A DNA stretch of 32,000 bases from positions 3,240,001 through 3,272,000 of the forward strand of contig NC_009483.1 of the NCBI RefSeq assembly GCF_000016745.1. The letters run 5' to 3'. Origin of the DNA: Geotalea uraniireducens Rf4 (GTDB lineage: Bacteria > Desulfobacterota > Desulfuromonadia > Geobacterales > Geobacteraceae). The notes below the pieces were generated by a model, which saw only the letters and a list, made by a program, of their open reading frames with translations, did no database searches and was not told the DNA's origin. The translations under genes were made by a program, and so were the position numbers. Positions within the stretch are counted from its first letter, which is position 1. Each line of letters starts with the position of its first letter. This document shows positions 268 to 28,280 of this stretch, in pieces.

Positions 268-1784
268 TACTACTCCGACACATAGCTTGATATAATCTGT
301 TTCATGTGATAATCTCTGCGAATGACAACAGAGATCGTTTTCCCCGGCATCGAAGAATATATGGCTCCCTATTATGGCTATTTCCATCGGTCAGAGAGCC
401 GTGAACTGGCAGAATGTTACTTGGCCGGCCTGCTCATGGACGGTGAGCGCAAGTCAGTTGAACCCATGTCAGAGAAGGTAAACGCATCTGAACGAAGTAT
501 GCAGCGCCTCCTTTCGACTGCCAAATGGGACGATCAACTTGTTGCTGAGCAATTCCGCCGTTCCATGCTTGACGTCACTTCCGACCCGCAGGGGATCCTG
601 GTTCTTGATGATACCGGGTTCCCTAAGAAAGGGTACGACAGTGTATGTGTTGCCCGGCAATACTGCGGTGCATCAGGCAAGACTGACAACTGTCAGATTG
701 GCGTAAGCATGACGTATGTCGGCAGAGATGTCGCCTGGCCATATGCCATGGAACTGTTCGTCCCGGAATCCTGGGATCAGCAAAATGATGATTGCACCGC
801 AAAGCGTAAAAAGGCTCACATGCCGGAGTCAGTGCACCATAAGTCAAAATGGCGCATGGCACTTGATTTTGTTGACCTGGCCCGAAAAGACAATGTTCCC
901 CATCGTGCAGTCCTTGCTGACAGCTGGTATGGCAACATTCCGGAGTTTCGCAAGGAGCTTGAGTCCCGCAGTGAAAATTACATCCTGGGAGCTTACTCCA
1001 ACACCCCGGTATTTCTTGAGGAGCCGGTCTTTGAAATTGCGCCAGTCAAAGAGCATAAGCGAGGGCGTCCACGAACTCGCCCTAAGGTAGTCTCCACAAA
1101 CCCCGAACCGGTCAAGCTGTCGGTACTGGGCGAAAGCATTGCCGATGATGCATGGCAACGGCTAGAATTGAGGCTCAATTCCAAGGACAAGCCACTTGTT
1201 GCAGAGGCCGTCTCAATGAGAGTGTGGCCGGCTCACGGATGGCGGCAGGGCAATCATCATGAACAAGTCTGGCTCCTGATAGAGCGCCGCCCCCTGAACC
1301 TGGGTGGATACGAGCTTCGCTATTTCTTCAGCAATATGCCGCAGCATCTGGCAACGATTGACCTTGCCCGCCTCTACCATGAACGTTATTGGATAGAGCA
1401 TGGCTATCAACAGCTAAAGGAAGAGCTTGGCCTTGATCACCATGAAGGGCGCTCATGGAGCGGATGGCATCGACATGTGCTCCTGACGTCCCTGGCATAT
1501 GGCTATCTGACACTGTTGCGTTTGCAGCAAAAAAAACAGAAGAGTGCGACAGCGCGGAGCAACTGGATTCAGAAAAAATCGACACTGGCCAACGACGCTT
1601 TGTTCTGAAAACCAAACACCTGGAAAAGTGGCGCCATCGTTGCTGTTCTCTTCGTTCCTCTGAGCGATGGAGGCGGAGGCAACGACTCAAAGGCATGCCG
1701 TCCTTGCCTGACATCAGGCATCAGATTGCAAAGCTTCTGGTGCGAATATTGAAATGTTAAAGAACTATATGTGTCGGAGTAGTA
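268..1784 (+). mobile_element. IS701-family insertion sequence, complete
   Basis: Perfect 17-bp terminal inverted repeats: tactactccgacacata at 268-284 and tatgtgtcggagtagta at 1768-1784. These are flanked by a direct TTAG at 264-267 and 1785-1788. The element contains a single DDE transposase ORF. Confidence 0.85.
322..1608 (+). CDS. IS701-family DDE transposase
   Basis: 428-aa ORF. DDE-type motifs are LVLDDTGFPKKG, VLADSWYG and YHERYWIEHGYQQLK (the Y-2-R-3-E-6-K signature). The N-terminus, MAPYYGYFHRSESRELAECYLAGLL, is typical of this family. Confidence 0.85.
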   Translation: MTTEIVFPGIEEYMAPYYGYFHRSESRELAECYLAGLLMDGERKSVEPMSEKVNASERSMQRLLSTAKWDDQLVAEQFRRSMLDVTSDPQGILVLDDTGFPKKGYDSVCVARQYCGASGKTDNCQIGVSMTYVGRDVAWPYAMELFVPESWDQQNDDCTAKRKKAHMPESVHHKSKWRMALDFVDLARKDNVPHRAVLADSWYGNIPEFRKELESRSENYILGAYSNTPVFLEEPVFEIAPVKEHKRGRPRTRPKVVSTNPEPVKLSVLGESIADDAWQRLELRLNSKDKPLVAEAVSMRVWPAHGWRQGNHHEQVWLLIERRPLNLGGYELRYFFSNMPQHLATIDLARLYHERYWIEHGYQQLKEELGLDHHEGRSWSGWHRHVLLTSLAYGYLTLLRLQQKKQKSATARSNWIQKKSTLANDALF

Positions 1785-11953: not shown

Positions 11954-11987
11954 AAAAAGGAGTCAACCGAATCGGCTAACCCCTTGA
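11954..11987 (-). terminator. Degenerate copy of the tRNA-fMet terminator. Proposed distal islet boundary and terminator of the ATPase cassette
   Basis: aaaaaggagtcaaccgaatcggctaaccccttga matches 16390-16423 at 30 of 34 positions. On the minus-strand RNA all 11 stem pairs are retained through G-U wobbles, followed by UUUUU. Confidence 0.5.
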
Positions 11988-12016: not shown

Positions 12017-12220
12017 TCAGACTTGAATCTCTTCCGGCTTGAGCCAGATCATTTTACCGTCGCGCCAGACGACAACAGGATTACCGGTCTGTTTGTGCTT
12101 CTTGAGAGCTTCCTGGACACCGGTTGCCAATGAGTCGGTTATCTTTTCCTGGTCGGCAAGCGCTTCTTCTATTTTATCCCTGTACTGTGCTCCCACCGTA
12201 GGCCTCCGCAATTCAGACAT
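12017..12220 (-). CDS. 67-aa hypothetical protein, third gene of the ATPase/DUF4276 cassette
   Basis: MSELRRPTVGAQYRDKIEEALADQEKITDSLATGVQEALKKHKQTGNPVVVWRDGKMIWLKPEEIQV. Its ATG overlaps the DUF4276 stop by 8 nt (ATGTCTGA). The upstream in-frame Met of the 75-aa ORF is less likely. Confidence 0.6.
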   Translation of the reverse strand: MSELRRPTVGAQYRDKIEEALADQEKITDSLATGVQEALKKHKQTGNPVVVWRDGKMIWLKPEEIQV

Positions 12221-12914
12221 TAACTCGCATCTGAAGACATTCAAGTCTTGTCAGCCAGTTATTAAAGTGGGTGCATTGTTTTCGTATAGTTGTAATGCCG
12301 ATAGCCTCGGAAATCGTCTTGCCATTGGCGACCTTGCGGTATCCATTTTTTAATGCTTCAAGCCGCTTAGATGGTGCTTTCGCAGGATCATCGTTTATTT
12401 CTTCCGGGCTGTTATATTTCCCAATAATTTCCTGAATCTTGGACACATCTATGTCAGTCTTTTCTGCTAGGACGTCTGCATCACTGAAAAGTAACGCTTC
12501 AAATTCGTGCATTTCGATATATGGGATAAATCTGCTTTCTGCGTTATAGCCAGTGAACTCTTTCACGATCTCAGAATTAGTGGCTGCCTCAAGAATATCG
12601 GCCTTCTGGATAGCTGTAAGAGAACTTCCATTTCGTATTTGCCTGCTAACTTCAGCTCTTCCTGGCCATTCAGAATCTATCCTAAAGTAATCAAACATCG
12701 TTGACACATAAGTCTCAGGACGCTGTTTGAGAAAATTGCCAATGTCTGTCTTAGCCCTGTCAAATTGAATGTCTCCGCCTTTTTGACCAGGTTTACCAAT
12801 TAAAGCTGGAAGCAGATATATTCCCTTATGTGCCATCTGCGGGGCCAGCACATCACGCACGAAGGTCTGTTCTGTCTGCCCTTCCACAACGATGTAGATT
12901 TCAATACTACTCAT
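12213..12914 (-). CDS. DUF4276-family protein (Toprim-like)
   Basis: 233 aa, counting from the ATG that overlaps the ATPase stop (ATGAGTAG). The N-terminal IYIVVEGQTEQTFV and later HEFEALLFSDADV are consistent with a Toprim Glu ... DxD arrangement. The DUF4276 assignment is from memory. Confidence 0.75.
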   Translation of the reverse strand: MSSIEIYIVVEGQTEQTFVRDVLAPQMAHKGIYLLPALIGKPGQKGGDIQFDRAKTDIGNFLKQRPETYVSTMFDYFRIDSEWPGRAEVSRQIRNGSSLTAIQKADILEAATNSEIVKEFTGYNAESRFIPYIEMHEFEALLFSDADVLAEKTDIDVSKIQEIIGKYNSPEEINDDPAKAPSKRLEALKNGYRKVANGKTISEAIGITTIRKQCTHFNNWLTRLECLQMRVNV

Positions 12915-14043
12915 AAGCAGGCCCTCCGGTGACAACGTTCTTACGCCAGAGGTCGCCCAACGAATAATCTTTAAGCCATGAAGAAAGTTCGCGCTTATTC
13001 AACCGTTCAAAGACTGATGCGCCCTGTTTTCGATTCACGACAATAATGTCTTCCGGTTCAAAATAATCGACGAGAGCAGGGGACTGAGTTGACACGATGA
13101 GCTGTGTATTTTTGGATGTAGCCTTAATCAGCTCGGCCAAAATTTCGATAGCATATGGATGCAAGCCCAGTTCCGGCTCATCAATAATGATGGTTGAGGG
13201 CGGGTCAGGTTGCAGAAGCGCCGTCGTCAAACAGATAAATCGGAGAGTACCATCGGACAGATGATGAGGTTTAAGTGGATAGTCGGAACCCTTCTGTCTC
13301 CAACGCAGCCTCACCCTTTCATTTTTGTCCGGCTTAAGGATAAAATCGTCGAAGAAGGGGGTAACCAAACGAATTGTATCAATGATTTGTTCATAAACTT
13401 TTTGTTTGCTAACTCGTCTGTTATTTTTTAAATCATATAAAAAGGAGGCGATGTTAGCCGCGTCAAACCGTAAATATTCGCTATCGTCAATCGTCCCATA
13501 GCGGCGCATCTGAGCTAATTTGCTGGTGTCGTGGAAATGATAGATTTTCCATGATGAAATCGCATTATAGATATGGGAGGCAACGCTGCGACCACCAGCA
13601 ACGCCCCTTTTATCCTTTTCTTTAAGCAATTCCGGCGAAGTTTGTCCGCTTCCCAGTTCCCACCAGCCGACAGTGCTGCCTTCATAGTAGCTCGCCTCAT
13701 CATTTATGATAAAGTTCTCGTCTGCGGTGGGGGCAAGTTTAAAACGATAACCGTTTTGGCCGAATCTTGTTACAACTTCGATCTGATCTGTGACCTTTGG
13801 ACCATTAAACAGGAAATCGTCACTACCGCCACCATCGGCAATATAGGTTTTCAAGCTAGCACTGGCAAGGCCCGGCAATGGCAATTCCAACATGGCACGC
13901 AGCAGACGAAAAAAATCGATAAAGTTGCTTTTTCCGGCGCCGTTGCCACCTATGAGGACATTCAAGTTGGATAGCTCAAAATCTTCAAGGGACCGGATTG
14001 ATTTAAAGCCCTTAATTGTTAATTTATCTAATGGCTGCGCCAT
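12907..14043 (-). CDS. ABC-type / AAA_21-like ATPase (OLD/AriA/PtuA-like ATPase class)
   Basis: 378 aa, RBS ggaggga. Motifs: Walker A GGNGAGKSN (K38), ABC signature-like LSDGTLRF, Walker B IIIDEPELGLHP and H-loop region VSTQSP. Confidence 0.85.
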   Translation of the reverse strand: MAQPLDKLTIKGFKSIRSLEDFELSNLNVLIGGNGAGKSNFIDFFRLLRAMLELPLPGLASASLKTYIADGGGSDDFLFNGPKVTDQIEVVTRFGQNGYRFKLAPTADENFIINDEASYYEGSTVGWWELGSGQTSPELLKEKDKRGVAGGRSVASHIYNAISSWKIYHFHDTSKLAQMRRYGTIDDSEYLRFDAANIASFLYDLKNNRRVSKQKVYEQIIDTIRLVTPFFDDFILKPDKNERVRLRWRQKGSDYPLKPHHLSDGTLRFICLTTALLQPDPPSTIIIDEPELGLHPYAIEILAELIKATSKNTQLIVSTQSPALVDYFEPEDIIVVNRKQGASVFERLNKRELSSWLKDYSLGDLWRKNVVTGGPAYE

Positions 14044-14157
14044 ACTAATGCTCCCTCCACGTTCCTTGCAGCAGATCCTGGCTCTCTTTGTCTTTCCGGC
14101 TCCATTAGGAGCGGCAATTATTTGAGATGGGGCTTTTTAATAAATGGCTCTTATCCA

Positions 14158-14463
14158 TTATCGGGGCCTACCCCTAGAGCAGCACAGTTGCCTAGAATTG
14201 CTTTTTCGCATGACTTCCGTATTTACTGCCGATCTGTGGGCTCTCAAGAAAATAGTCGTCGGTCGAGTTGGCTGGTATACCTTCCGAGGAAGAGAAAGCG
14301 TACTCTTGCCATAGGTCTTGAACGGAACCTCATGGTAATGCTTGACGACCTTCACACCTATCCAGTGCAGTGTGGGCATCCAGAGTCTCGTATCACGGAA
14401 TAACTTGACTGTATAATATACATCATCAGCACCAGATATCCTAATAATTTCTAAGAGATACAC
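14158..14463 (-). CDS. Unassigned ORF upstream of the ATPase cassette. It may be non-coding or a gene remnant
   Basis: 101-aa ORF with a GTG start 13 nt after a terminator hairpin. An internal Met at about 14379 is an alternative start. There is no recognisable motif and no convincing RBS. Confidence 0.2.
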   Translation of the reverse strand: MYLLEIIRISGADDVYYTVKLFRDTRLWMPTLHWIGVKVVKHYHEVPFKTYGKSTLSLPRKVYQPTRPTTIFLRAHRSAVNTEVMRKSNSRQLCCSRGRPR

Positions 14464-14475
14464 CTATCATATAGT

Positions 14476-14502
14476 AAAAAGGCCAAGTCATGCGACTTGG
14501 CC
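14476..14502 (-). terminator. Rho-independent terminator (minus strand)
   Basis: ggccaagtc-atgc-gacttggcc, with AAAAA on the plus strand giving a U-tract on the minus-strand RNA. Confidence 0.55.
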
Positions 14503-14750
14503 CTTAAGGCTACTATTGATATTTTACCGATCCTCTTCAGGATCGACTCTTGCTTGCATAAACATTAAAAACCACCCATCCCAAGAAGTTGATTCATCAT
14601 TATCGAGTAAATGGTTGGTAACATGCCTCTATCTGGTCCAGGAACGATGTCTACTTTTTGCATTCAAAGGCTAAGGAGGGCTATTCTTTCATTATAAGTC
14701 TATATGGCCATGGTATTTGGTAACCAGTGGTACATGATGGGTTAACTACC

Positions 14751-14785
14751 AATCATCTGAAGGGGTCTGAATCATCTGAAGGGGT
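14751..14785. repeat. Tandem 16-bp duplication abutting the group II intron 3' end
   Basis: aatcatctgaaggggt occurs at 14751-14766 and 14770-14785, separated by ctg. Confidence 0.7.
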
Positions 14786-15148
14786 GTCGCGGTAGGAATG
14801 CCGGTTACCCGGCACCCCCCGCACAGATCCCAGCGAGCAGATTTCCCGCACTGGGCTCCTGCCTCAGGTAGTGACGCGCAAGCGAGCTTCAGGATAAGGG
14901 TGATATATGCGCGGCGGGGGAAGCCAGCGTGTTGCTATCAGGCTCATGCGCTCCCAGGTTGTTCGCTGCCGTTGACTCCGGCGACGAAGCGTCCACTTCC
15001 AGTAGCAGAGCAGATGATACCTAAATGCGCTGAGTCTGCGACTGTTGCGCGGCACCCCATAGTATCGGTAATGCCCCAACAATACGGATCGCAGCCATTT
15101 TCCCACTTCCGTGATGGGAGTGTGCATGCGCTTGCGTAGCTCCTGCTT
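14786..15148 (-). mobile_element. 5'-truncated group II intron: maturase C-terminus plus domains V and VI
   Basis: The minus-strand ORF end reads ...EVGKWLRSVLLGHYRYYGVPRNSRRLSAFRYHLLCYWKWTLRRRSQRQRTTWERM...RIYHPYPEARL, a maturase X-domain pattern. Downstream is GAGCCCAGUGCGGGAAAUCUGCUCGCUGGGAUC, a domain V-like fold with the AGC triad and a 2-nt bulge. Next comes a domain VI hairpin (UGCCGG-GUAA-CCGGCA) with a bulged A, ending ...CGAC at 14786. No RT finger/palm domains or domains I-III are present. Confidence 0.75.
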
Positions 15149-15150
15149 GG

Positions 15151-15186
15151 GTGAGAAAAATGGGGTCAGTGAGAAAAATGGGGTCA
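15151..15186. repeat. Perfect 18-bp tandem duplication at the intron truncation point
   Basis: gtgagaaaaatggggtca occurs twice (15151-15168 and 15169-15186), followed by the small hairpin gtcag-ccc-ctgac. Confidence 0.75.
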
Positions 15187-15246
15187 GCCCCTGACATGAG
15201 ACAAACTCACTCTTTTCAACCTCATATTCCCAACACGAAATACTTC

Positions 15247-15790
15247 TACGCCCCATACCTCACCATCCTCTCCTTCACCACCATCTCCCGCTCCCGCTCA
15301 ATCTCGGCCCGCAACTCCTCCTCGCTCGGCAGATACAGCCGGTACCTGGACGCAAAGAGCTGCCGGCTCTCGTTCAGCACCGAGTACTGCACCACCGTGT
15401 GGTCTTTCTCCGTGCAGAGGGTGATACCAACGGTCGGATTGTCCCCCTCACCCTTGACCCTGTCCTCGTACAGTCCGCAGATATTCCACGCGGTGCGTGG
15501 AATATTGGAAAAGACAGGTAGAACTGCCTGAAGTAAGAGAGATTCGAGACGCCGAACCCTGAGCCAAATTCCGATGTCAGCCTCTCAGACAGATCGCGAA
15601 TCAACGCCTTACCATATCCCGCGCGTTCCATCCCCTGCTGCTCTTCCTCGACGATCATCCGTCCTACGTTCCAGTAGGCTTCGATCATATGAAGTTGACA
15701 GCACGATAGCTGTTGGAGCGGGCATTACGAAGGAGATCAGCCACCGCCTGGCAGAATTCGGCAGGTACGACATCGCTCCCTGGCCGAACT
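15247..15790 (-). pseudogene. Decayed DUF1016 / YhcG-like PD-(D/E)XK nuclease gene
   Basis: The N-terminal part spans two frames: ...EFCQAVADLLRNARSNSYRAVNFI, a frameshift, then MIEAYWNVGRMIVEEEQQGMERAGYGKALIRDLSERLTSEFGSGFGVSNLSYFRQFYLSF. The C-terminal part, in a third frame, reads NPTVGITLCTEKDHTVVQYSVLNESRQLFASRYRLYLPSEEELRAEIERE. The central roughly 200 aa of the family are missing. Confidence 0.65.
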
Positions 15791-15904
15791 GCAGTTCCAC
15801 CCTCGCGGCCCTTACTCCGCTTTGTTGTTTTACGTTGCGTCAACGCACACTCCCAAAGCCGTTGTCACCCCACCCTCTGCCACAACAATCGGCATCTCAA
15901 ACAT

Positions 15905-15944
15905 GAAAAAGCCGCCAATCAGCATATCACTGACCCGGCGGCTT
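15905..15944 (-). terminator. Terminator-like hairpin (minus strand)
   Basis: aagccgcc ... ggcggctt (8-bp stem, 20-nt loop with an inner 4-bp stem), followed on the minus strand by UUUUU. Confidence 0.4.
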
Positions 15945-16024
15945 ATATCTACACGCAGTGCATCCATTCCACTTTCTATCGCCCATCCCCAAAAACTCCG
16001 CATAACGCAATAAAATGAGCCTCC

Positions 16025-16054
16025 TATTTACACCCTGGATGCGCTCGGTGTCAA
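16025..16054 (-). promoter_or_regulatory. Sigma70-like promoter candidate (TTGACA-18 nt-TAAATA)
   Basis: The minus strand reads TTGACA (16054-16049) and TAAATA (16030-25), separated by an 18-nt spacer. The site lies about 110 nt upstream of the 15905-15944 hairpin. Confidence 0.35.
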
Positions 16055-16064
16055 CCTTTAGCTA

Positions 16065-16240
16065 GTTTCCATCCGGAAACGGTTCTTTTCCGCCCTGGCG
16101 GTGTCAATCTTCAGGCTTGCTTGTGCGGCGTACCGATGTACGCCTCCGCGCAATCCCTCGATTTCCTTGCCAGGACGAAAAATCCCTCGTTTCCGAATTG
16201 GAAACCAATAGTGTCACATCCGGAGTTTCCGGATGGACAC
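16065..16240. repeat. Cluster of GTTTCC-N4-5-GGAAAC palindromes
   Basis: gtttccatccggaaac (16065-16080), gtttccgaattggaaac (16189-16205) and gtttccggatggacac (16225-16240). The flanks tagctagtttccatccggaaac and gtttccggatggacactagcta form a 20 of 22 inverted repeat. Confidence 0.45.
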
Positions 16241-16384
16241 TAGCTAGGGATTTTCTAACTTGTTTCTCATCAGGAGTTTCCATTGAGCTGATTTTGGAGT
16301 TGCGGATTTCTAGACTGGGGAAGACGGGACCAAACAGTTGTCTCAGATTGGAGATGATCTTACTGTACAAAATACTCTACTGCC

Positions 16385-16423
16385 ATCAAAAAAAGGGGTC
16401 AGCCGTATCGGCTGACCCCTTGA
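16385..16423 (-). terminator. Rho-independent terminator of tRNA-fMet, and the proximal islet boundary repeat
   Basis: aaggggtcagccg-tat-cggctgacccctt is a perfect 13-bp stem. The A-run on the plus strand gives UUUUUUU on the minus-strand RNA. It starts 8 nt after the tRNA CCA end. Confidence 0.75.
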
Positions 16424-16430
16424 ATTTGTT

Positions 16431-16507
<77 letters not shown>

Positions 16508-26708: not shown

Positions 26709-28280
26709 TTAATTAACTCAACTTTCGCAGCTGGTAAATATATGTAACATATTGTAATTATTAATAGTATAGCGTCGCAATCTGGGTTAAAATGGCTTTG
26801 TTCCCCAACAAATCCACTAGCACAGAGAGACGACGCTATGCAGCAGATTGTAGCAGGATTTGCATCCGTAGAAAACCGGATTCATTCGTTCTTTCACAAT
26901 CAGAACCTCGGCCAGTTACTTCGGCAAAGCAATGTCAGGAAGGAAAAGGGCGTTAGCCTCGACACCTTGTTCCAGCTTTTGCTTTCCCTTGCCTTTACCG
27001 GAAAAAATCTGTTCCGTCTCCTGGAGAGTCCAGATTCACCGGATGGTATCGGTAAAGACACTGCGTATCGGCTGTTGAACTCGGTCAATGCCAACTGGCG
27101 CCGTTTTCTGTTGCTGCTCAGCACGCGGGTCATTGTCCAAAGGCTTCTCCCGCTGACCGATGAGACGACCACCAAGGTGCTGATCGCTGACGACACTCTG
27201 TATCGTCGCGACCGCAGCAAGCGGGTCGAACTGCTGGCACGGGTGCATGACCACAACACCGGTCGTTACGTGCGTGGCTTCAGGATGCTCACCCTGGGGT
27301 GGTCCGATGGGAACAGCTTTGTACCCATGATGCTGTCGATGCTCAGCTCTGCCAAGGATAAGAACCGCCTTGCCCCAATGCGTGAGGGCATCGATAAGCG
27401 CACCAACGGATATCAGCGCCGCCGGGAGAGCATGAGGAAATCCACCGACGTACTGGTGGACATGGTTGCCTTGGCAATGAAGGCAGGAACCACTGCCCGG
27501 CACCTGCTCTTTGACAGCTGGTTTGCTTTCCCCGCCACCATCAGGCGGATCCGCGCCCTGGGGATGCATACCATCTGCATGCTCAAGGATACGGGTAAGG
27601 TCACCTACGAGGTGCAGGGGTGGCCGTTCACCCTGAAAGAACTATTCAAAGAGGTCCGCAAGCGACCCGGTCGAGCCAAAGTGTTGGCAGAGGTGCTGGT
27701 GACCATAGGTCAAGACATTCACGGTAAACCGGTGGCAGCAAAGATCGTGTTCGTCCGCGACCGCAGTTCGAAGAAATGGCTGGCGCTCCTTTCCACCGAT
27801 ACGACCTTGACCGCCGAGGAGATCATCACGCTCTACGGCCGTCGCTGGGACATCGAGGTGTTCTTCAAAATGGCCAAGTCGTTTCTGAATCTGGCAAAGG
27901 AGTTCCAGAGTCGTTCCTTCGATGCTCTGGTCGCCCACGCCACACTGGTCTGCTGCCGCTACATTCTGCTTGAGCTGGTGAAACGGGAAAATGCTGATCC
28001 TCGAACTCTTGGCAGCCTGTTTCACGCTCTATGCGATGAAATAAGACGAATTGGCTTCACAGAAGCAATGGCACTGTTGCTCACATTTCTGGAAGAATCA
28101 CTCAACAGCATTATTGGATTGTGCAAAGAGCAGGTGCAACAACTGATACAACGCTTTATAGAAACACTACCAAGAGCTTTCAGGGAGCGAATGCTACTTT
28201 TGGCCCCGGTATGCAGCTAAACCATATATCTGTCAACTAGTTACGGCCAATCTCGCTAGTGCGAAAGTTGAGTTAATTAA
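26709..28280 (+). mobile_element. IS4-family insertion sequence, complete
   Basis: Terminal inverted repeats are ttaattaactcaactttcgca (26709-26729) and tgcgaaagttgagttaattaa (28260-28280). The element carries a single DDE transposase ORF. Confidence 0.85.
26838..28220 (+). CDS. IS4-family DDE transposase
   Basis: 460 aa. DDE-type motifs are LIADDTLYRRDRSK, LLFDSWFAF and YGRRWDIEVFFKMAK (the Y-2-R-3-E-6-K signature). Confidence 0.88.
   Translation: MQQIVAGFASVENRIHSFFHNQNLGQLLRQSNVRKEKGVSLDTLFQLLLSLAFTGKNLFRLLESPDSPDGIGKDTAYRLLNSVNANWRRFLLLLSTRVIVQRLLPLTDETTTKVLIADDTLYRRDRSKRVELLARVHDHNTGRYVRGFRMLTLGWSDGNSFVPMMLSMLSSAKDKNRLAPMREGIDKRTNGYQRRRESMRKSTDVLVDMVALAMKAGTTARHLLFDSWFAFPATIRRIRALGMHTICMLKDTGKVTYEVQGWPFTLKELFKEVRKRPGRAKVLAEVLVTIGQDIHGKPVAAKIVFVRDRSSKKWLALLSTDTTLTAEEIITLYGRRWDIEVFFKMAKSFLNLAKEFQSRSFDALVAHATLVCCRYILLELVKRENADPRTLGSLFHALCDEIRRIGFTEAMALLLTFLEESLNSIIGLCKEQVQQLIQRFIETLPRAFRERMLLLAPVCS

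Follow-up and report, generated by a model that had tools for sequence, protein, structure and literature searches.

We analyzed a 32,000-nucleotide (nt) stretch of the genome of Geotalea uraniireducens Rf4 (contig NC_009483.1, positions 3,240,001 to 3,272,000 of the forward strand). This whole stretch is called the window below, and positions are counted from its first letter. Our interest was in three contiguous open reading frames (ORFs) on its minus strand, named here g1, g2 and g3, the last being a small ORF that ends at position 12017. An original prediction, made from the sequence alone, had presented them as a translationally coupled three-gene cassette encoding an ATP-binding cassette (ABC) ATPase, a DUF4276 Toprim-like protein and a protein of 67 amino acids (aa), and as a candidate uncharacterised defence system. 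Our analysis points instead to a chimera, in which g1 and g2 belong to HEC-01, a candidate system of the PADLOC catalogue, and lie within the remains of a gene for a Zeta-toxin-family P-loop kinase. The genes and the two edges of the cassette are as follows:

12907 to 14043, minus strand: g1, HEC-01A-type ABC ATPase (AAA_21), 378 aa
12907 to 12914, minus strand: overlap of the g1 stop and the g2 start, ATGAGTAG, 8 nt, a translational coupling site conserved in the family
12213 to 12914, minus strand: g2, HEC-01B-type DUF4276 protein (putatively Toprim-like), 233 aa counted from ATG, 100% identical to a protein of Geotalea uraniireducens
12197 to 12213, minus strand: right junction, 3' relic of a Zeta-like gene (~17 nt) with the g3 Shine-Dalgarno sequence GGAGG (DNA homology)
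12017 to 12196, minus strand: g3, 59-aa small protein with a GTG start (based on homologue lengths, Zeta_toxin/AAA_33 neighbours and its presence in 0/80 loci with g2 relatives)
14060 to 14144, minus strand: left junction, 5' relic of a Zeta-like gene, 85 nt (tblastn, DNA alignments, nhmmer)

In Pfam, g1 matched AAA_21 (E = 2.4e-40) and g2 matched DUF4276 (E = 2.5e-59), the two families that had been expected, and the small protein g3 was without a match above threshold there and without any match in PADLOC and NCBIfam. The proposal of a split pair of ABC ATPase and Toprim-like protein, of the architectural type of OLD, PARIS and Gabija, therefore held up. A PADLOC check of the locus, which had been recommended, was positive for both genes: g1 matched the HEC-01A model PDLC04175 (9.3e-143; residues 3-375 on profile positions 4-362 of 363) and g2 the HEC-01B model PDLC04188 (3.2e-74; residues 4-228 on positions 13-227 of 230). 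HEC-01 requires adjacent A and B genes on one strand, and g1 and g2 are arranged in this way, with their 8-nt overlap. NCBIfam had no equivalog for g1 or g2; its MAD3 model gave 109.5 bits against a cut-off of 420. Judged by these profile matches, the g1-g2 pair is a new member of HEC-01, which is already catalogued and has been tested twice in E. coli; the pair is not an uncatalogued one. The name stands for "Hma-embedded candidate 01", and the system was described as pairing an ABC ATPase with a TOPRIM protein (Payne et al. 2024, 10.1101/2024.01.29.577857). The AAA15/21 tree in the PARIS paper (PMC11464382) also contains DUF4276 pairs.

The ATPase motifs read in g1 were mostly borne out by an alignment of 49 distinct relatives. 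The Walker A lysine was found in all 42 sequences covering its position, and the signature motif LSDGT(L/I)RFI, the Walker B motif DEPELGLHP and STQSP were kept in 49/49 sequences or nearly so. STQSP, which had been taken for the H-loop region, is present as residues 316-320 (window 13084-13098), but the H-loop position was Q, not H, in all 49 distinct sequences of the clade; this glutamine in place of histidine may bear on ATP hydrolysis. The cassette is also AT-richer than its flanks, as had been noticed, and foreign in composition. The G+C content, followed by that of third codon positions (GC3), was 0.456 / 0.475 for g1, 0.427 / 0.402 for g2 and 0.506 / 0.567 for g3, compared with 0.611 / 0.784 for the neighbour lytS and 0.58 / 0.744 for the neighbour proS.

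We then collected 80 metagenomic loci with relatives of g2 (59-83% identical). In nearly all of those with a contig long enough, g1 was found immediately upstream of g2, and the 8-nt overlap, of the form ATGAnTAG/TAA/TGA, was kept in 69 of the 76 loci showing both genes. This overlap is more than chance, and the pair is translationally coupled. A g3 homologue was present in none of the 80 loci (0/80). No conserved gene of any kind was found 3' of g2 in these loci, where the downstream content varies from locus to locus (by eye, yggS, ruvA, rsmB, tsaE, others, or nothing). Plasmid-borne relatives, with 13 records at 34-47% identity, were plain two-gene pairs, and phage genomes yielded no relative.

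The flanks of 27 non-redundant loci, comprising 137 ORFs, revealed no recurrent family (maximum 3/137) and a mixture of housekeeping and defence genes. The defence genes near some relatives were type IIG restriction-modification, Hhe, Lamassu, Septu PtuA, ZorD-like and HEC-05 genes, and at one locus (L058) an HmaB-like methylase lay directly upstream. On the Aeromonas media plasmid pE31A (L142:5872-7666), an AAA ATPase and DUF4276 pair (g2 46.5% identical) was located between a site-specific DNA methyltransferase and a DEAD/DEAH helicase, with SNF2 and DUF4391 genes alongside; this arrangement is an example of the embedding that gave HEC-01 its name. Given flanks without a recurrent family, their mixed content and the nesting in pE31A, we consider that the HEC-01 cassette is, on this comparison, mobile, found in variable contexts and sometimes inside other defence systems, with no fixed housekeeping neighbourhood. 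The survey of DUF4276 neighbourhoods advised by the original prediction thus returned some defence neighbours in contexts that were variable rather than tied to housekeeping genes, but not the conservation of a third gene.

Both edges of the pair carry remains of a Zeta-like gene. The 5' relic (14144-14060) corresponds to the first ~27 codons of such a gene; its start codon is now ATT and a 1-nt deletion shifts the frame, and one can still recognise the Walker A motif (...IIAAPNGAGKT...). An nhmmer profile of zeta 5' ends (23 genes) produced one match in the 32-kb window, at this relic (E = 3.7e-8). The zeta homology stops at GGAAC (14065-14061), some 20 nt ahead of the g1 ATG, and the upstream block shared by HEC-01 relatives (TGTGGAACATGGAGrG...ATG) begins at the same GGAAC. 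On the other side, homology to HEC-01 relatives extends to the last codons of g2, and homology to the loci where g3 relatives accompany a Zeta-like gene (zeta+g3 loci) sets in at ...GAaTTgCGGAGGCcTACGGTG / GAaTTgCGGAGGC, directly at the g2 TGA. Both breakpoints are at short microhomologies, and no zeta gene was found elsewhere in the window. Because at both junctions the zeta homology stops where the HEC-01 homology starts, we conclude that the HEC-01 cassette, with ~20 nt of its own leader, replaced ~500 nt of the toxin gene.

The right junction also bears on the start of g3. The string ATGTCTGA at 12213-12220 joins the g2 stop and an in-frame ATG of the small ORF over 8 nt, and the 67-aa protein had been read from this ATG. 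The usual 59-aa form of the g3 homologues begins at the position equivalent to the GTG at 12196, and GGAGG at 12203-12207, 6 nt ahead of this GTG, is conserved across all aligned loci. The ATG within ATGTCTGA is part of the 3' end of g2, and HEC-01 relatives without a downstream gene carry ...AATGGCGAA... there. For these three reasons we preferred the model 12017-12196, in which g3 most likely starts at GTG 12196 (59 aa), 16 nt past the g2 stop and with its own Shine-Dalgarno sequence. The ATGTCTGA overlap is probably fortuitous, and the 67-aa ATG start was rejected in view of the homologue starts and the position of the Shine-Dalgarno sequence. Of the predicted chain of 8-nt overlaps, both strings are in the sequence and the g1/g2 link is a family trait, but the g2/g3 link is not likely to be the start of g3. 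No terminator was found between g1, g2 and g3.

Searching the protein database gave 104 clusters of the g3 family, nearly all with 57-63 aa and most with 59 aa, and with a nearly invariant C-terminus (HKQAGNPVVVWRDGKxVWLKPEEI). The g3 of the window is intact and retains every family-invariant residue. Its AlphaFold2 (AF2) model (pLDDT, for predicted local distance difference test, 85) has two helices and a beta-hairpin, and Foldseek returned no structural match for it. We found no description of the g3 family in the literature on COG4185 and on zeta toxins with a downstream antitoxin. In Citrifermentans bremense, a Thermodesulfovibrionales genome and metagenomic contigs, g3 directly follows a gene of ~200 aa with an overlap of ~17-23 nt. 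A Zeta-like kinase of C. bremense is encoded at AP023213, 924588-925187. The partner of g3 passes the Pfam Zeta_toxin model PF06414 (52.9 bits, cut-off 22.3), and zeta also remains the partner of the two closest g3 relatives (92% and 85% identical). Short AAA_33 'zeta' toxins have been shown experimentally to be toxic (PMC5728571). A survey of 50 genome loci with g3 relatives, all collected through g3, showed a Zeta_toxin/AAA_33 gene or its remains directly upstream in about two thirds of them:

21 of 50 loci: intact Zeta-like gene upstream, overlapping the g3 start
7 of 50 loci: fragmented Zeta-like gene upstream
3 of 50 loci: Zeta-like gene fused to g3
1 of 50 loci: Zeta-like gene cut by the contig end
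12 of 50 loci: no zeta ORF, with at least 700 nt of upstream sequence
6 of 50 loci: no zeta ORF, with upstream sequence too short to judge

Half of the 12 loci without a zeta ORF retained a 3' zeta relic (L006, L013, L020, L024, L038 and L054), as did L136, which was found apart from this survey. HEC-01 was found in none of the 50 loci, and the g1-g2-g3 trio was seen only in G. uraniireducens itself. The claim that the small protein is a third component of the cassette is contradicted by its absence from the 80 related cassettes, by the pairing of its family with Zeta_toxin/AAA_33 genes and by the zeta relics that flank the pair. No conserved small gene was found upstream, where an epsilon/PezA-type antitoxin would be encoded.

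Pairs of zeta and an overlapping 59-aa g3 were seen at L002:5424-6180, L005:5415-6186, L137:4415-5180 and ~30 further loci (L007-L050), in Geobacterales, Nitrospirota/Thermodesulfovibrionales, Planctomycetota, cyanobacteria, Burkholderiales and others. The fused zeta-g3 ORFs are L028:362-1150, L039:4015-4776 and L040:3-743, from one Competibacteraceae and two Burkholderiales assemblies. In L005/L029, L015, L033, L034 and L036, a homologous gene of ~950-1220 aa, which has Eco57I/N6_Mtase (type IIG restriction-modification) domains in L005, stands just before zeta+g3 and sometimes abuts it, and this suggests a defence-island setting for the pair. Tentatively, the zeta kinase and g3 could constitute an undescribed, widespread toxin-antitoxin-like or defence-accessory module with reversed gene order, marked by the almost invariant C-terminal beta-hairpin NPVVVWRDGKxVWLKPEEI and frequently placed just behind type IIG restriction-modification genes. 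Such a module might also serve as a landing pad where defence cassettes replace the toxin, and g3 would here be co-expressed with HEC-01 as an orphan antitoxin or as a brake on HEC-01. We hold this idea possible, though with less than even odds.

For g2, 129 diverse relatives were compared. Residues E11 and E15 (VEGQTE), E137 and E139 were invariant among them, and D75 was kept in at least 90%. The opening IVVEGQTE to which attention had been drawn is therefore present with both glutamates invariant. The string LFSDAD is also present, but its second Asp is variable even among close relatives, and we rejected it as a DxD motif. After the predicted beta3, where a DxD motif would lie, there is one conserved Asp (D75), with the invariant E137-x-E139 further on. 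In the AF2 model of g2 (pLDDT 76), a beta1-alpha1-beta2-alpha2-beta3 core was observed (beta1, residues 4-10; beta3, residues 68-73), with E11 where beta1 ends and D75 immediately past beta3. E11 thus corresponds to the conserved Glu at the end of strand beta1 that is a Toprim feature. When the relatives were scanned one by one against Pfam (E <= 10), sub-threshold matches to OLD-like_TOPRIM (PF20469) were obtained for 21/129 (best E 0.003). This was the only recurrent family besides DUF4276, the next being seen in 3/129; g2 itself did not match PF20469 even at E <= 10. An attempt at an OLD-TOPRIM profile yielded only 4 proteins in the homologue search with the C-terminus of Old, and 0 in tblastn against plasmids. 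The Toprim assignment of g2 is weakly supported by these conserved residues, the model, the recurrent PF20469 matches and the register of the single hhalign match to P2 Old, and it is asserted by two papers (10.1101/2024.01.29.577857, PMC12065111), the second of which terms DUF4276 a Toprim-superfamily member and a homologue of Mad4. By analogy, E11, E15, D75, E137 and E139 are the likely metal ligands. These five residues together with K38 of g1, and not LFSDAD, can be supplied as targets for HEC-01 mutagenesis.

The cassette lies beside a tRNA gene, in a segment bounded by a direct repeat:

11954 to 11987, minus strand: left copy of a 34-nt direct repeat and terminator-like hairpin with a U-run, 30 nt after g3 (repeat search; RNA fold -20.2 kcal/mol, z = -3.2)
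14145 to 16389, no strand assigned: remainder of the islet, gene fragments with no intact gene recognised, GC 0.51
16390 to 16423, minus strand: right copy of the 34-nt direct repeat and terminator hairpin, 8 nt after tRNA-Met (-26.7 kcal/mol, z = -6.1)
16431 to 16507, minus strand: tRNA-Met (CAT) (ARAGORN; Rfam 65.6 bits)

The two repeat copies are 88% identical and are the only ones in the window. Between them are g3, g2, g1, the zeta relic and 2.2 kb of debris; housekeeping genes flank them, lytS/lytT at one end and spoU, pyrF, proS, ispG and gdh at the other. The Rfam scan found the tRNA only. The hairpin after g3 was not flagged by the promoter scan and was folded separately. Within the debris, a truncated DUF1016_N fragment was recognised at 15374-15688 on the minus strand (Pfam 1.8e-19), and the other ORFs of 14145-16389 had no Pfam match. 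These included the ORF 14864-15256, for which a by-eye reading as the C-terminus of a group II intron maturase was rejected. In our reading the AT-rich 4.4-kb segment would be an acquired islet. Repeats were also observed in the debris, namely an 18-nt tandem duplication without mismatch at 15151-15186, a 16-nt repeat at 14751-14785 and an inverted repeat of 22 nt at 16059-16080 and 16225-16246. Two DDE_5-type insertion sequence (IS) transposase genes are present in the window (322-1608 and 26838-28220), with housekeeping surroundings (TRAP transporter, cstA, lytS/lytT, proS, ispG, gdh and an HD-domain protein with a HAMP domain).

With a probability of roughly 78%, we consider this locus to be a chimera, namely a two-gene HEC-01-type cassette inside a destroyed gene of a Zeta-toxin-family P-loop kinase, whose small partner g3 is left intact. 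The order along the minus strand is tRNA-Met, 34-nt repeat, debris, zeta 5' relic, g1, g2, zeta 3' relic with Shine-Dalgarno sequence, g3, and the second 34-nt repeat with its terminator hairpin. A 4.4-kb islet would have been acquired beside tRNA-Met, and the HEC-01 cassette would have replaced the middle of a Zeta-like kinase gene, leaving the 5' end as a dead pseudogene. The three genes may now be read as one transcript from whichever promoter served the old zeta module. In this scheme g3 would once have been the antitoxin-like or regulatory companion of the kinase now lost, and is presumably harmless alone since many loci have g3 with a decayed kinase. As for function, PARIS, OLD and Gabija suggest by analogy that the ABC ATPase may act as a sensor of a phage cue or as a scaffold that holds or activates the Toprim-like protein, a putative metal-dependent nuclease. 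Upon infection this nuclease would cut nucleic acid and phage growth would be aborted.

Several points weigh against parts of this reading. The promoter scan recognised no sigma-70-like promoter upstream of g1, and for this reason we infer co-transcription of g1, g2 and g3 rather than observe it. The 34-nt repeats could be two similar terminators and not attachment sites. Defence by g1-g2, a candidate anti-phage pair, and by their clade is a prediction, and one HEC-01 representative gave no protection in E. coli (10.1101/2024.01.29.577857). On the Toprim side, the single hhalign match of the g2 family profile to the whole 586-aa P2 Old, g2 2-57 on Old 391-443, speaks for the assignment in that it lies within the Pfam TOPRIM domain (389-455) and sets VEGqTE on VEGKTE, but its probability is only 1.5%. 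When g2 alignments were run against P2 Old, domain and register were the right ones, at probabilities of 0.5-2.7%. Foldseek searches of the g2 model against PDB and BFVD found nothing significant (best E 0.057 and 0.077), and no chain was matched when g2 alignment profiles were compared with PDB sequences. The role of g3 as an antitoxin-like or regulatory zeta partner is inferred, and the pattern in which the toxin decays and the partner stays is biased by loci gathered through g3. Because g3 stands directly behind other large genes without a detectable zeta relic in L022, L027, L037 and L041, it may be a more general accessory gene. By eye, the large ORFs before g3 look like type III restriction Res-like helicases in L037:2277-4973, L041:2277-4973 and L022:304-2997, and PHP-domain ATPase-like in L027:2100-4991.

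These points must be set against other explanations of the trio. A true three-component system, with the small protein as an obligate stoichiometric third subunit of an ATPase/Toprim machine, would agree with contiguous same-strand ORFs that no terminator separates and that a terminator-like hairpin follows, and with a g3 that keeps all the residues invariant in its family. However, neither g3 nor any conserved third gene occurs in the 80 related cassettes, HEC-01 is missing from the 50 g3 loci, the plasmid relatives are two-gene pairs, the zeta relics on both sides point to a secondary juxtaposition and the overlapping ATG was inherited from the g2 3' end. By these comparative data such a system appears already largely refuted, and we regard it as highly improbable. 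A lineage-specific co-option in G. uraniireducens seems quite unlikely as well. Here g3 would dampen the nuclease, or neutralise Zeta-like toxins of incoming elements as an orphan antitoxin (anti-addiction), while being co-expressed with the pair. Such a role would suit a gene that now most likely depends on read-through from g1-g2 alone for its expression and starts 16 nt beyond the g2 stop with its own Shine-Dalgarno sequence, that has remained intact while both zeta ends decayed, and whose relatives stand behind other large genes that look defence-like by eye (the same four loci). Yet the arrangement is known from one species only, and a 180-nt gene can remain intact by chance.

Another possibility concerns the pair itself, which may not be anti-phage but a selfish, addiction-type module, or a mobile pair for nucleic-acid housekeeping or repair. 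The unprotected E. coli test agrees with this, as do the many relatives that are single insertions among housekeeping genes without a recurrent flanking family (<=3/137 ORFs) and the lack of relatives found in phage genomes. Conversely, a HEC-01 cluster that came from a cold-seep genome and had been picked at random made E. coli B resistant to one or more of T7, T5 and T4 (10.1101/2024.09.26.614923), and the family was discovered through embedding in Hma systems (10.1101/2024.01.29.577857). Some relatives also stand beside or inside restriction-modification, Hma-like, Lamassu, Septu or Zorya-like genes, and the architecture matches that of PARIS, OLD and Gabija. On balance we find a role other than anti-phage defence unlikely, and retain the chimera of a HEC-01-type cassette in a destroyed Zeta-like gene.

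This chimera is a junction-resolved case of a defence cassette inside another conflict module, in which the host module is a destroyed toxin gene. It illustrates that tight spacing, and even start/stop overlaps, can come from a secondary insertion, so comparative checks should precede the proposal of multi-component systems. The g1-g2 pair is a known, catalogued and tested candidate system, and the new leads are limited to the small gene g3, which represents a small and very conserved protein family tied to Zeta-like kinases, and to the destroyed Zeta-like module.

Compared with known systems, the pair most resembles HEC-01, with full-length matches to A and B, the adjacent ABC ATPase and DUF4276 layout, and an embedding in another module like that of the founders. 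Unlike these, it is in a decayed Zeta-toxin module and not in Hma, no helicase or methylase is nearby, and its clade has Q at the H-loop. PARIS (AriA + AriB; PMC11464382) likewise couples a split ABC ATPase of the AAA_15/21 type with a following Toprim-type effector, and its mechanism is probably analogous, with a nuclease released or activated by a scaffold or sensor. The effector here is DUF4276 and not the DUF4435 of AriB, for which no match was found, and the AriA match of g1 (PDLC02980) coincides with Pfam AAA_21 in residues and profile length and looks generic. Class 1 OLD (P2 Old) and Gabija GajA also combine an ABC ATPase with Toprim, and VEGQTE of g2 is in register with VEGKTE of P2 Old. 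In the window, however, the ATPase and the Toprim-like domain are on separate proteins, unlike class 1 OLD, without an above-threshold match, and g2 has a single conserved Asp (D75) and the invariant ExE (E137, E139) instead of the DxD of OLD and GajA. Gabija further differs by its UvrD-like GajB helicase, no counterpart of which was found in the islet, and the GajA match of g1 was weak (5.7e-15). With MADS, g1 shares matches to mad3 models (PADLOC 1.2e-30; NCBIfam MAD3 2.1e-31), and Mad4 is a reported DUF4276 homologue (PMC12065111). The MAD3 score is nevertheless far under 420, and the neighbours checked (lytS/lytT, tRNA-Met, spoU, pyrF and proS) included no methyltransferase or other mad gene. 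As the defining features of PARIS, OLD, Gabija and MADS were not found, we rejected membership of all four. The g3 side recalls epsilon/zeta and PezAT, given that the usual partner of g3 is a Zeta_toxin/AAA_33 P-loop kinase of ~200 aa. In known epsilon/zeta-type systems the antitoxin (epsilon, PezA or ParD-like) comes from an upstream gene, whereas g3 lies downstream of its partner, overlaps the 3' end of the kinase gene and is sometimes fused to it.

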